Below are positions 26,310 through 63,128 of a stretch of DNA of 64,000 bases, in pieces. Below the pieces are notes generated by a model. It saw only the letters and a program-made list of their open reading frames with translations. It had not been told where the DNA came from and did not search any database. Position numbers and translations under genes: made by a program. The DNA is taken from the NCBI GenBank assembly GCA_016840165.1, contig JAEOSU010000072.1:224001-288000 (forward strand). Direction: 5' to 3'. How positions within the stretch are numbered: the stretch's first letter is position 1; each line of letters begins with the position of its first letter. Origin of the DNA: Promethearchaeota archaeon (GTDB lineage Archaea; Asgardarchaeota; Lokiarchaeia; Sigyniarchaeales; SOKP01).

Positions 26310-26906
26310 ATGTATGAAAAAGAAATGGTTATGAATGGATATAATGTAATTGCGAATGATTATTATACTCACAGAGATTTGAATAAATTTAATGGAGAAC
26401 TGGAGAATTTTTCGAATCTGATTCCTGAAGGAGGCAGAGTTCTAGATGTTGGATGCGGTGCGGGAATACCAACTGCTAGATATTTGGTAAAAAAAGGTTT
26501 AAAAGTAACCGGTATTGATATTTCAGAGAAAATGCTTCAAATGGCACGAAAGAACGTCCCTGAGGCCGACTTTTTCAAGAAAGATATGATGCTGCTTGAT
26601 TTCGATGATAATAAATTCGATGGTATTATTTCTGTATATGCTCTCTTTCATGTTCCTAAGCAAGAACAATTTAAAATATTTCAAAATTTTTATCGGATCT
26701 TAAAACCCGCAGGAATTCTATTGATTAATACTGGAATCTCGGAATCTGAAGGAGTGAGTAGTTTTTTTGGCGTTCCGATGTTCTGGAGTAATAATAAACC
26801 TGAGAAGACCTTAGAATCTATTAAAAAGTCTGGTTTTTCAATCATTTTCGATGGAGTACTCCAAAGAGGGGGAGAGTTTCAATACTGGATAATCGCTAAA
26901 AAATAA
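26310..26906 (+). CDS. Class I SAM-dependent methyltransferase
   Basis: VLDVGCGAG, GIDISEKML, RILKPAG. Confidence 0.9.
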   Translation: MYEKEMVMNGYNVIANDYYTHRDLNKFNGELENFSNLIPEGGRVLDVGCGAGIPTARYLVKKGLKVTGIDISEKMLQMARKNVPEADFFKKDMMLLDFDDNKFDGIISVYALFHVPKQEQFKIFQNFYRILKPAGILLINTGISESEGVSSFFGVPMFWSNNKPEKTLESIKKSGFSIIFDGVLQRGGEFQYWIIAKK

Positions 26907-59220: not shown

Positions 59221-59577
59221 TCAACATCCAACATCTGGTTGTAATTGAATATAACTGTCAGGATAGACATTAAATTCAATTTTATCCCGAATGGGATTGA
59301 ATTTTTGCATCAATCCGTTCTCATCTGGAGCATAAGCATAGATTCCAACATCATCATAAATGCTATTTGTTTTAAAATCGACAAGCAATTGCATGTAATT
59401 GTGAATATAGCCCTCATTTATAGGAAAAATTGTTTTTTGTGTATCCTTTGCTTCTATTTTATCAACCATCGCAAGACATTCCAAGAACGTAGCATCTTCT
59501 TTTATTGTAAGATTGTATTTCTTTCCGTGTTGAAGCCCCTTAATCGGTAAACTAATCTCAAAAGTTATTTTTTTAAT
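59221..59577 (-). CDS. Probable ubiquitin-like (beta-grasp, MoaD/ThiS-like) protein ending in Gly-Cys
   Basis: The frame stays open upstream of the tracked TTG (59484) to ATT codons after GGAGG: IKKITFEISLP...YNLTIKEDATFLECLAMVD...YPDSYIQLQPDVGC. This matches the MoaD-like strand/helix pattern. Confidence 0.5.
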   Translation of the reverse strand: MKKITFEISLPIKGLQHGKKYNLTIKEDATFLECLAMVDKIEAKDTQKTIFPINEGYIHNYMQLLVDFKTNSIYDDVGIYAYAPDENGLMQKFNPIRDKIEFNVYPDSYIQLQPDVGC

Positions 59578-59613: not shown

Positions 59614-59889
59614 TTAAATTAACCCTTTTTGTTTCAATATATTTGGTAATTCTTTTTTTAATAAATATGAAGCTGTAAAGATCCTATTATTATCCACTAC
59701 CGCACATTTACTATGAAGATTTAGATTACGTGCCTCTTCAGAATTCAAGTTTTTAGTATCGTAATCTATATATTTTATATAAGGAGTAAGTGCTTCAAAA
59801 ATTCTATTTACAAATTTGTCCCATTCGCAAGCACACGCATCTAATGGAACATATATATTTACTGTTAATTTTTCATTCGATTTTTCCAT
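59614..59889 (-). CDS. Small thioredoxin-fold/ArsD-like CxC protein
   Basis: VNIYVPLDACACEW followed by a helix, and KCAVVDN; lies within the arsenic operon. Confidence 0.55.
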   Translation of the reverse strand: MEKSNEKLTVNIYVPLDACACEWDKFVNRIFEALTPYIKYIDYDTKNLNSEEARNLNLHSKCAVVDNNRIFTASYLLKKELPNILKQKGLI

Positions 59890-59922
59890 TACTTATTATA
59901 GCACCTTTTTATTATTAACATT

Positions 59923-60246
59923 TTATGGGCAGTTACAGCTTTTTTGTACGCTTTTAGCAACACTTCTAGCATTCCACAAACATCCACAACCTTTCTGCTC
60001 ATTTAAAATAATGGCGTTGACAGGGCAGTTTCGCTGACAAGCACTACATTCTGTGCATAATTCTGGATGGGTTATCTCGAACTTCCCATTCTCCTTTTCG
60101 TGGGGTAATCCAAATGGACAGAGTTCGGCACAAAGCCCACAACCAGTACATTCTGGCTCTTTTATCATTATTTTTATACCTAAAACACGTAAAATGTTAT
60201 CTAAAGAATTTGTATTACAACAAGCGTTCTGATTTATATCTACCAT
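59923..60246 (-). CDS. hgcB-like: HgcB-like 2[4Fe-4S] ferredoxin with Cys-rich termini
   Basis: CTGCGLCAELCP and CTECSACQRNCP, then GCGC and a terminal CNCP; N-terminal CC; directly follows the hgcA-like gene. Confidence 0.75.
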   Translation of the reverse strand: MVDINQNACCNTNSLDNILRVLGIKIMIKEPECTGCGLCAELCPFGLPHEKENGKFEITHPELCTECSACQRNCPVNAIILNEQKGCGCLWNARSVAKSVQKSCNCP

Positions 60247-60266
60247 ATTATCTATTCCTCCTTTTA

Positions 60267-61925
60267 TTATATTATGTTAAAAAAATTAATTATATTTAAT
60301 CCTAAGAACAAAAAAACAATGATTATTAATATTATATTGATTCTTCTGAAAATTGGATACTCTAACTGTATTTCTCTTGGACTAGTCGCCATCGTGTATC
60401 CACTGAAAGACATCGTTGAGAAGAAACTTAGCCAAAAAATAATTACACTCTGTAAAAAAACATAGAGCACTGAGTAATGAATAAACCATGTAAATAGGCT
60501 TAGAATAAAGAGAGTAATACCTCCAAAAAATATTGCTTTTAGAACAAATTTTCTTGTAAATTTTGAAAGTGGGAAGAAAATGGATATTATAGCGTTTGAT
60601 AAAATTACCCAGATTGCCAACTCCCCAACCCAAAATAGATATTTTGCTTTACTTAAAGCTAGAAGTAGGATTAATAGTCCTAAAAGAGGTAACCAAAATA
60701 TTTTGCGAAATAAAAAAGTAATATGTGTTATTCCCGCACGGATTCTTTGAGTAAAGGTAAATTTCGCAAGTTTCATAGAATCTGGTTTTTTAGTAGGTTT
60801 ATTCTTGACATATTCCTTTATTTTATTCGACCATACTGGTCCATATTTTATTTTAAAAGGAAAATTTTTAGGAAGCTGTGGGATTGATATTCCACCTGCA
60901 GATAATTGAGGGAGAATCAGAGTTTTTGTGTTTGTAATCTGTTTAATTCCAGTAGCATTGATTGCATTTAAGAGTTGTATATTTCCAAAGTCTCCGCCTC
61001 TCGCAGCACACCATACATTTATGCCGTTAGAATCTATACATAAAACCCAAGCGTCAATATCTTTTAAATCTCGCATTACTTTTATATATGTATAGTCATA
61101 ATTAGCAGTCACAATAATAGGAGAGTGCTCATCTGGATTTCCTGACCTATAAATACCCGGTTCGATTGCAACTCTATCCACTTGCCCAGTAAATAAACAT
61201 CGGTATATTCTAAACTGAGATTTTATTCCTTTAAAGTTTCGTAATTTCGGTCTATAGTATCCTGGTTCGTTTTCGGTGTTGACTGTAATTTTTTGTAATT
61301 CTATAGCTCTAATAGCCCCATGAGCCCATTCCTTTTTTGTAAGAATTTTGAATCCTATAGAACTTAAAAAACCTAAAAAGTAATTATTAGTATGAGTACC
61401 TCCCAATCTTAATTTCCGTAATTTTTTTTTATACCACCATCTTTTTAACCTAAATTGTATCTTCCAGAAACCTGAAGGGATAAACTCTGCCGCTATTATT
61501 AGCCTTCCATCAGGTTTCAAAGCTCTCCAAACATTTCTCAAAAAAATTTGTTGTTCTAAAGGTTTAAGCTCAGAAAGCATAAATGTACTCAATATAAGAT
61601 CTTGTGAGCTATTGTCAACTTCTAAGTCCTTATAAGAACCGACTTGGTATAAAAGCTCTACTTCTTTTTCAGTTGGATAATTATCCATAGCATATTTAAT
61701 CATATTCAAGTTATTATCTATTGCTTTAACAATATTCTCTTTTAAAGCAGCATTTTTTGCTAAAGTACCAGTGCCACATCCAATATCTAAGATAGTACTG
61801 TTTTTTTTAATCTTTTCCAATATCCACTCTTGAACTTTATTATTTACGCCCTTAGTTAAAGATGTGAATTCTGAATCATATGATTTCGGAACTTCCTCTA
61901 ATTTTTTCATATATACTACTGCCAT
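60267..61925 (-). CDS. hgcA-like: SAM-dependent methyltransferase fused to an HgcA-like corrinoid-binding membrane protein
   Basis: N-terminal ILDIGCGTG...LKPDG. Then EPGIYRSGNPDEHSPIIVTANY, GINVWCAARGG, LILPQLSAGG, YGPV, about 5 TM helices and the MSFSGYTMATS...E motif. Confidence 0.85.
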   Translation of the reverse strand: MAVVYMKKLEEVPKSYDSEFTSLTKGVNNKVQEWILEKIKKNSTILDIGCGTGTLAKNAALKENIVKAIDNNLNMIKYAMDNYPTEKEVELLYQVGSYKDLEVDNSSQDLILSTFMLSELKPLEQQIFLRNVWRALKPDGRLIIAAEFIPSGFWKIQFRLKRWWYKKKLRKLRLGGTHTNNYFLGFLSSIGFKILTKKEWAHGAIRAIELQKITVNTENEPGYYRPKLRNFKGIKSQFRIYRCLFTGQVDRVAIEPGIYRSGNPDEHSPIIVTANYDYTYIKVMRDLKDIDAWVLCIDSNGINVWCAARGGDFGNIQLLNAINATGIKQITNTKTLILPQLSAGGISIPQLPKNFPFKIKYGPVWSNKIKEYVKNKPTKKPDSMKLAKFTFTQRIRAGITHITFLFRKIFWLPLLGLLILLLALSKAKYLFWVGELAIWVILSNAIISIFFPLSKFTRKFVLKAIFFGGITLFILSLFTWFIHYSVLYVFLQSVIIFWLSFFSTMSFSGYTMATSPREIQLEYPIFRRINIILIIIVFLFLGLNIINFFNII

Positions 61926-61936
61926 TCAACACCAAC

Positions 61937-63022
61937 TTATTTGGATTTCCAAAACCCAATTTTTCCCAAATATCTCCCTAAATAGACAATTGAGAGCATA
62001 ATAGGCACTTCCCAGAACAACCCCATGGTAGTACCTAATGCGGCATAAGAACCAATCCCATACATCGCTATTGCTGTTGCGATCGCGATCTCAAAATGAC
62101 TAGACGAACCAATGATGACTGTAATTACTGCCTCTTTATATTTCAATTTAAGCAATTTTGTGACTATAACATTATAACTAACAACAATTACAAATCCCAC
62201 CAATAGGGGAATAGATACTATTAATAAAAGATCAGGATTAGTAATTAGTACATTACCATTTAGCGAAAATAGTACAACAAGAGTTATCAATAAAGCTATA
62301 ATCGATACTTTTCCGACGAATGGACGATATTTTTCATCGAACCAAACTTTACCTTTAGAAGATATTATTAATTTCTTGCTTAAGATCCCCAGAAGCAAAG
62401 GTAAACCAATAAAAAATATTAAAGAAACAAGTAATAGTAAAATATCTATAGGAATATTTTTAATTCCTGATAATAATGAGACCATTCCAACATAGCCAAA
62501 AATTATTGTAATTGTATTAAGACTTGTATTAAGGACATTTTGTTCCTGATTTCCTTTAGCCATCCAACCCCAAACCAAAACCATAGCAGTACAGGGTGAA
62601 CTAGATAATAAAATAATTGCAAATCCCAATTGTCTCACTATTTCTGAATCTCCCGGTAAAAATATGTTTACCATCAACAAACCAACGAAGGGTGCCACTA
62701 ACCAGTTAGAGATTAAAGTTAAAATTATAGGTTTGGGATTCTTTCCAAGTTTTTTTAATTCCGATGCTTGAAGATTTAACATCGCAGGATACATCATTAA
62801 AAATAAACAAATACCAATTGGTATAGAAATGTTTCCAATAGTGAAAGAATTGATTAAAATACTAATTTCTGGAAGAAATTGGGAAATTAAAATCCCTAAG
62901 ATTATGCAAATTCCTACCCAGATTGGTAATAATCTTTCAAAATAGTTGATTTTTCTCGATTTTTGTTTATCTGGTTCATCAAAACTCTCTAATAATTCCT
63001 GTTCAAACTCTTCTTCAGCCAT
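61937..63022 (-). CDS. acr3: Acr3 arsenite efflux transporter
   Basis: FERLLPIWV, MMYPAM, SPCTAMVLVW, SSHFEIAIATAIAMYG, EVPIML. Confidence 0.93.
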   Translation of the reverse strand: MAEEEFEQELLESFDEPDKQKSRKINYFERLLPIWVGICIILGILISQFLPEISILINSFTIGNISIPIGICLFLMMYPAMLNLQASELKKLGKNPKPIILTLISNWLVAPFVGLLMVNIFLPGDSEIVRQLGFAIILLSSSPCTAMVLVWGWMAKGNQEQNVLNTSLNTITIIFGYVGMVSLLSGIKNIPIDILLLLVSLIFFIGLPLLLGILSKKLIISSKGKVWFDEKYRPFVGKVSIIALLITLVVLFSLNGNVLITNPDLLLIVSIPLLVGFVIVVSYNVIVTKLLKLKYKEAVITVIIGSSSHFEIAIATAIAMYGIGSYAALGTTMGLFWEVPIMLSIVYLGRYLGKIGFWKSK

Positions 63023-63128
63023 AATTCTCAAATTATATTTAATGTGTTTTTATTCATATTATTAAATGAAATTGTAATTTCATCTAATTAGAGTCTGAGA
63101 TATAGTTATTTTGGCTCAAATAAAAACA

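Follow-up and report, generated by a model that had tools for sequence, protein, structure and literature searches.

A 64,000-nt stretch of DNA from a Promethearchaeota archaeon (assembly GCA_016840165.1, contig JAEOSU010000072.1, positions 224,001 to 288,000; hereafter the window, whose own numbering is used below) carries a gene that, judged from profile matches and a structural model, encodes a natural three-part protein, in which a methyltransferase of the CpaM type that would use S-adenosylmethionine (SAM) is followed by a cysteine-capped, HgcA-like corrinoid domain and a five-helix membrane anchor. New here are this methyltransferase–HgcA architecture (MT-HgcA) and the lineage to which it belongs, as well as its conserved place in a Lokiarchaeial ars operon. 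As the most likely mechanism we favor, with moderate confidence, a relay that would run from SAM via Co(I) to a metal(loid) acceptor; for an uncharacterised branch of the HgcA family, the data thus suggest SAM as methyl donor and, possibly, arsenic as the target. The native function of the HgcAB family is a long-standing question, as was the source of its methyl group until 2024, and the fusion adds independent genomic evidence for SAM feeding the corrinoid in the wider family.

An earlier reading of the DNA made from its letters alone (the sequence-only reading) had described a single uninterrupted frame of 552 amino acids joining a methyltransferase to a corrinoid domain, and on this the open reading frame listing, Pfam, and NCBIfam all agree. 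Pfam places Methyltransf_11/25 at residues 45–145 and the CdhD/CFeSP corrinoid model (PF03599) at residues 241–343. The N-terminal domain is a relative of NCBIfam CpaM, the “corrinoid protein-associated methyltransferase” (NF043040, a hypothetical equivalog), which covers residues 3–209 with 135.8 bits (cut-off 180; profile positions 2–213 of 216) and scored 138.8 bits in the whole-genome profile scan. Residues 253–536 match both HgcA (NF040863; 176.3 bits, cut-off 275) and the HgcAB-like fusion protein (NF043039; 177.9 bits, cut-off 285), the latter only over profile positions 15–264 of 350, and the gamma subunit of CFeSP (PDB 2h9a) matches the corrinoid domain with an E value of 3.7e-9. The AlphaFold2 (AF2) model of the chain has a mean predicted local distance difference test score (pLDDT) of 90.3 and a predicted template modelling score (pTM) of 0.87, and the latter, holding over the whole chain, suggests a defined packing of the domains against each other. 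The five predicted transmembrane helices span residues 391–423, 427–456, 460–483, 486–508, and 516–550. In Foldseek, the top match of the fusion is the published HgcAB model 9a0b_A (template modelling score 0.60, normalised to the target), and the nearest structural relatives of the methyltransferase domain are the small-molecule methyltransferases UbiG, Coq5, PEMT, and CmoA.

The residues expected to carry the chemistry are well preserved. Motif I of the methyltransferase domain (DIGCGTG, residues 47–53, nt 61767–61787) contains the SAM-binding positions G49, G51, and G53, which, like D70, are invariant among 62 sequences of 29–93 % identity, and the same range of identity leaves the cap residues N303, V304, C306, A307, A308, and G310 conserved. 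The last-mentioned residues lie in the cap-helix motif NVWCAARG of the corrinoid domain (residues 303–310, nt 60996–61019), whose Cys306 is found in 100 % of 141 fusion proteins; Cys243, in the linker, is found in 95 % of them. Cys243 is a feature of the MT-HgcA class that recurs in a single split HgcAB-like sequence (L066), and it is missing from bona fide HgcA and from the other HgcAB-like sequences aligned. At the N-terminus, the signature L9, E10, P13, Y16, and D17 corresponds to E11, P14, Y17, and D18 of stand-alone CpaM. As the sequence-only reading had pointed out, the cysteines of ArsM are lacking: residues 1–215 hold a single cysteine, C50, which belongs to motif I (in its GCG), none of the cysteines that bind As(III) is present, and the ArsM profile (NF008823) reaches 35 bits against a cut-off of 263.

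The same reading had allowed for a fusion created in assembly. A protein search, however, returned more than 120 protein clusters of about 550 residues and 59–93 % identity, all with both domains and with named clusters from Promethearchaeota/Lokiarchaeota, Heimdall-, Hod-, Odin-, and Hermodarchaeota, and full-length fusion matches are present in about 85 Asgard genomes. Among 301 genomes of the phylum, the fusion query matched 64 of the 68 genomes of the window's own family, and two further families gave full-length fusion matches with 32–37 % identity. Contigs of three further studies, none of them the likely source, also run across the junction without a gap (window positions 59904–61874, 61138–61399, and 60949–61501). 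The probability that an assembly or gene-calling error joined two genes is thus practically nil, as this is refuted by independent contigs and orthologues alike. The apparent internal stops (TAA) that had been flagged in fusion matches proved to be ordinary stop codons at position 553–555.

The partner that the sequence-only reading had deduced for HgcA-like proteins by a Rosetta-stone argument is already curated by NCBI as CpaM, and the deduction is therefore not new. No paper describing or testing CpaM in this sense was found, and the preprint of Haft & Gwadz 2023 makes no mention of it. In Asgard archaea, three layouts occur. In the layout of the window, the MT-HgcA fusion is accompanied by a separate gene for an HgcB-like ferredoxin, which lies directly downstream at 20 of 20 and 29 of 29 orthologous loci; this pairing is obligate. 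In the second, a stand-alone methyltransferase gene precedes a fused HgcA-HgcB gene, and here the methyltransferases score 250–273 bits and their HgcAB-like partners 375–447 bits, that is, above the respective cut-offs. The third is a single MT-HgcA-HgcB chain of about 596–655 residues (L069–L074, from the Asgard families f9 and f14), one example of which (L071) exceeds both the CpaM and the HgcAB-like cut-off.

Bacteria show the same association. A scan that combined the CpaM alignment with the generic pattern [VI]LDIGCGTG covered 80 loci, and all eight with a full-length CpaM (from Deltaproteobacteria, two Gemmatimonadota, Zhengella, Eubacteriales, Acidimicrobiia, Desulfobacterales, and one unclassified bacterium) show an HgcAB-like gene as the next one downstream, whereas none of the 72 generic methyltransferase loci has one beside it; the latter are unrelated methyltransferases and serve as a negative control only. 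Around bona fide hgcA (n=25; 396–464 bits to the HgcA model), no CpaM-like gene was found within 1.5 kb at any of the 25 loci. The expectation of the sequence-only reading that stand-alone homologues of the methyltransferase would lie near hgcA-like genes thus held for the HgcAB-like branch, in bacteria and Asgard archaea, and failed for bona fide hgcA. Since, in archaea as well as in bacteria, members of one methyltransferase family are found next to HgcA-like proteins, fused with them, or in triple fusions, the gene arrangements argue strongly for a functional link between the two domains. We hold the architecture and the linkage of CpaM with HgcA-like proteins to be very likely.

Several genomes hold more than one system of this kind. 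In a metagenome-assembled genome of Desulfobacterales (G301), a bona fide hgcA (444 bits; L159) occurs besides a separate CpaM/HgcAB-like pair (166 bits to HgcA; L085/L163), and the two coexisting systems are presumably not redundant. Many genomes with the MT-HgcA fusion likewise possess a paralogous stand-alone CpaM with an HgcAB-like fusion (L061–L066, L075, L076); in the window's own family (L061–L065, L075, L076), the cap motif of this second system reads NVWCGACG, with a second cysteine, and in three of the four such loci scanned (L061, L062, L064) a PF04075 gene (F420H2-dependent quinone reductase-like) follows directly downstream. In-frame TGA or TAA codons in these paralogues mark ordinary boundaries between CpaM and HgcAB-like genes that share a frame by chance, and do not encode selenocysteine.

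The MT-HgcA class is a distinct lineage because its scores remain under the cut-offs for CpaM, HgcA, and HgcAB-like proteins, and this likewise applies to the distant fusion members L052 and L057. In a tree of the corrinoid domain (a quick tree from 180 columns, in which the outgroup row OG_L162 was disregarded, as it represents the wrong region of an 839-residue protein), bona fide HgcA forms one clade with a Shimodaira–Hasegawa-like approximate likelihood ratio (SH-aLRT) support of 100, and the window's clade (support 99) lies outside of it, with the backbone unresolved. The cap motifs follow a similar division: close orthologues of the fusion read NVWCAARG(N/G/D)(D/N)FGN, NVWCAAGK is seen in 24 of 25 bona fide HgcA sequences and NVWCAASK in the remaining one, and HgcAB-like proteins show NVWC[AG][AS]xGG, without the lysine. 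NVWCAARG keeps the cysteine and replaces GK by RG, and it fails the published high-stringency hgcA motif N[VI]WC[AS][AGS]GK (Capo et al. 2022; PMC10087281), so that the gene does evade strict filters, as had been proposed. The accompanying suggestion that the change from GK to RG may mark an altered specificity has to be qualified, as loss of the lysine is general across the HgcAB-like branch and no special mark of the fusion. Lin et al. 2023 placed Asgard sequences in a fused-HgcAB clade after trimming the first 327 alignment columns as poorly aligned, by which any N-terminal methyltransferase domain would drop from view. A third lineage is hereby defined, which hgcA filters and NCBIfam models leave as a “methyltransferase domain-containing protein”.

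With the curated CpaM/HgcAB-like system, the fusion shares a class I SAM methyltransferase with an E..P..YD signature, a cysteine-capped corrinoid and transmembrane protein, and a ferredoxin with two [4Fe-4S] clusters. In the curated system, however, the methyltransferase is separate and the A and B parts are fused, whereas here the methyltransferase and the corrinoid protein make up one chain and the ferredoxin has a gene of its own; the additional conserved Cys243, the location in an ars operon, and the NVWCAARG cap are further differences. HgcA and HgcB resemble the present pair in the corrinoid domain with its cap-helix cysteine, the five transmembrane helices, and the separate ferredoxin with an equivalent of Cys73 and a terminal cysteine pair, but the fusion is not part of the bona fide HgcA clade, carries a cap without GK, and devotes its N-terminal 215 residues to a SAM methyltransferase. 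ArsM/AS3MT have in common with it the class I SAM methyltransferase fold and a gene in an ars operon under ArsR, yet the fused methyltransferase is devoid of As(III)-binding cysteines, so that any methyl transfer to arsenic would have to pass via the corrinoid. Precedents for the methylation of protein-bound Co(I)/Co(II) by SAM are the reactivation (AdoMet) domain of MetH and cobalamin-dependent radical SAM methylases such as TsrM and Fom3. Their folds are unrelated to that of the fused methyltransferase, an ordinary class I SAM-binding domain of the Rossmann type. Such precedents for SAM methylation of protein-bound cobalamin are also discussed in PMC11588087.

The strongest clue to the acceptor is the ACR3/ArsR context of the gene (Table 1). 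acr3, the fusion gene, and the hgcB-like gene form one tight string with gaps of 11 and 20 nt. The permease, which matches TIGR00832 over positions 2–325 of 327 (257 bits, cut-off 282.8), is the only ACR3 match of the 99.7 %-complete genome, in which the profile scan found no ArsM reaching the cut-off. The regulator scores 70 bits to NF033788 (cut-off 55), its CVC having been read from the translation. Of 29 species-level loci in the window's family, 19 have ACR3 immediately upstream of the fusion and on its strand, in most cases with an ArsR close by, and another 5 have ArsR without ACR3; at the other 5, ars genes are lacking within 1.5 kb, and four of these carry MarR, one together with a flavin mononucleotide (FMN) reductase. 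The ferredoxin scores 51.2 bits to HgcB_ferredoxin (NF040864; cut-off 99) and reads CTECSA instead of the C(M/I)ECGA of HgcB. In the alignment, it nevertheless shows GCGC(L/I)WN where HgcB carries Cys73 and retains a terminal cysteine pair, the protein ending in a CxC tail.

Table 1. The MT-HgcA fusion gene, its predicted domains, and neighboring features in the window.
Feature	Position	Strand	Basis or remark
MT-HgcA fusion gene	60267–61925	−	one open reading frame of 552 aa, ATG start, 0 internal stops
CpaM-type class I SAM methyltransferase domain, aa 1–215	61281–61925	−	NF043040 and Pfam Methyltransf_11/25
Linker, aa 216–245, terminal helix with Cys243	61191–61280	−	AF2 helix 233–245
HgcA-like corrinoid-binding domain, aa 246–385	60771–61190	−	NCBIfam HgcA_corrinoid and HgcAB_like, PDB and Foldseek matches
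Membrane domain, five predicted transmembrane helices, aa 391–550	60270–60770	−	AF2 model
HgcB-like 2x[4Fe-4S] ferredoxin, 107 aa	59923–60246	−	begins 20 nt after the fusion gene; HgcB_ferredoxin match
ACR3 arsenite efflux permease	61937–63031	−	ends 11 nt before the fusion gene; TIGR00832
ArsR/SmtB metalloregulator with CVC ahead of the helix-turn-helix	63267–63626	+ (divergent)	NF033788, Pfam HTH_5
91-aa CxC protein	59614–59889	−	conserved; 33 nt downstream of the HgcB-like gene
Near-perfect palindrome TTTCGATT-TG-AATCGAAA	63129–63148	.	235-bp arsR/acr3 intergenic region, inside inverted-repeat arms I1/I2

In the mechanism that we favor, the HgcB-like ferredoxin would reduce the cobalt to Co(I), the fused methyltransferase domain would bind SAM and methylate Co(I), with CH3-Co(III) and S-adenosylhomocysteine as products, and the methyl group would then be passed on to a soft metal(loid) bound via thiols by the cysteine-rich tail of the HgcB-like protein, possibly also by Cys243. 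Purified HgcAB has been shown to use SAM as methyl donor via CH3-cob(III)alamin with Co-thiolate ligation (PMC11588087), and because it takes its methyl group from SAM, this three-step relay is the simplest reading. Loading of the cobalt from SAM by the methyltransferase domain is, on the strength of motifs and domain arrangement, probable. As(III) or Sb(III) would be the most likely acceptor in this Lokiarchaeial lineage, since the gene belongs to the one ACR3/ArsR operon of the genome, although arsenic or antimony is put forward here as a tentative assignment that we would not expect to be right in the majority of such cases. The conserved ACR3/ArsR operon and the failure to find ArsM nonetheless yield a concrete substrate hypothesis. 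Taken one step further, Asgard archaea including Lokiarchaeia might detoxify or otherwise convert arsenite or antimonite via an ArsM-free corrinoid route, in which methyl groups would pass from SAM via the CpaM domain and the cysteine-capped cobalt to the metalloid on the thiol tail of the ferredoxin. This is a rather doubtful proposition; if true, metalloid methylation would be the native job of the HgcA superfamily and mercury methylation a side reaction of one of its branches. As a single chain with methyltransferase and corrinoid domain and one small partner, the system is in any case attractive for expression and spectroscopy.

Several points weigh against this picture. About one third of the close orthologues carry MarR or an FMN reductase upstream instead of ACR3 (Pfam-confirmed in the fuller loci), and apart from one ArsR (L054), no ars genes were found at the distant MT-HgcA fusions (families f9 and f24) or at the bacterial and other Asgard CpaM/HgcAB-like loci. 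The ars context is confined to close Lokiarchaeial orthologues, and related genomes are not independent samples. ACR3 furthermore exports As(III) and not methylarsenicals, and no ArsP-like exporter was seen. As regards the loading step, purified bona fide HgcAB draws on SAM with no CpaM-like protein present (PMC11588087), so that the chemistry does not demand a dedicated loading domain. As neighbors vary beyond the close orthologues and ars genes are lacking there except for the one ArsR, the CpaM, HgcA-like, and ferredoxin modules constitute a self-contained unit, the acceptor of which may differ between lineages.

The reductase in the upstream slot of the ACR3-less orthologues (L042, L045, L048, L016, and L037) is a PF03358 NADPH-dependent FMN reductase, often accompanied by MarR. 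The PF03358 superfamily includes ArsH, and the enzyme could be an electron source for the ferredoxin.

Three other assignments of function have to be weighed against the relay. The methyltransferase domain might act as a repair module only, much as in MetH, whose known chemistry underlies this argument: it would remethylate inactive Co(II) reductively with an electron from the ferredoxin, while turnover would draw on another donor, for example, a methyl-pterin, delivered by an unlinked methyltransferase. Reductive methylation calls for just these two parts, a low-potential ferredoxin and a domain that binds SAM, and the genome holds a Wood–Ljungdahl corrinoid protein and hence methyl-pterin metabolism. 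However, no gene for a pterin- or corrinoid-methyltransferase is conserved beside the approximately 85 loci examined, and SAM sustains turnover of purified HgcAB (PMC11588087), which renders a role restricted to repair unlikely. Still somewhat harder to reconcile with the data, and quite improbable in our view, is a direct methylation of the final substrate (a metalloid, a thiol, or a small molecule) by the methyltransferase domain, with the corrinoid and ferredoxin part performing, for example, reductive dehalogenation or demethylation; the two halves would then be joined through a common pathway and not through a methyl relay. While the small-molecule enzymes among the structural relatives of the domain fit such a role, and organisms with HgcAB have been reported to dehalogenate halomethanes in a 2026 preprint (10.64898/2026.04.26.720869), the domain lacks metalloid-binding cysteines, CpaM occurs only with HgcA-like partners in the sampled loci (8/8 as compared to 0/72), and the three modules travel together with no other conserved neighbor.

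That the fusion, as a divergent HgcA with a SAM domain of its own, functions as a mercury methylase appears very unlikely from its sequence, even though the cap-helix cysteine, the five transmembrane helices, and the HgcB-like partner with its cysteine tail would suit this role, and its 176 bits would exceed the 100 bits that define the “moderate” threshold, provided that the Hg-MATE hidden Markov model scores alike. The same 176 bits fall well below the NCBIfam HgcA cut-off of 275, the cap is without GK and the partner without C(M/I)ECGA, the protein lies outside the strongly supported bona fide HgcA clade, and tested organisms with HgcAB-like genes have been reported without methylmercury production. 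Pyrococcus furiosus, with a fused hgcAB, is one of the organisms shown to be unable to methylate Hg. In environmental surveys, these Asgard genes should accordingly be left out of tallies of mercury-methylation potential. For hgcAB, too, a regulator of the ArsR family has been reported in the vicinity (bioRxiv 10.1101/2022.10.17.512643). Of the readings considered, the relay from SAM via cobalt to a metal(loid) thus remains the one that we prefer.

Some further features of the window deserve mention. The 91-residue CxC protein recurs downstream of the HgcB-like gene at 17 of 29 and 5 of 11 orthologous loci (by tblastn), with the CxC placed after the first strand, and an open reading frame for an 87-residue protein with a Gly-Cys end follows further downstream in the same gene string (59221–59484, minus strand). 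Pfam gave no match for either protein even at an E value of 5; a thioredoxin-fold or ArsD-like metallochaperone is a mere guess for the former. Elsewhere in the window, positions 26418–26729 (plus strand; contig positions 250418–250729) give the second-best CpaM score of the genome (72 bits, a partial match), which probably reflects a generic class I methyltransferase. Finally, the palindrome between arsR and acr3 represents, by its sequence and position, a candidate ArsR operator.

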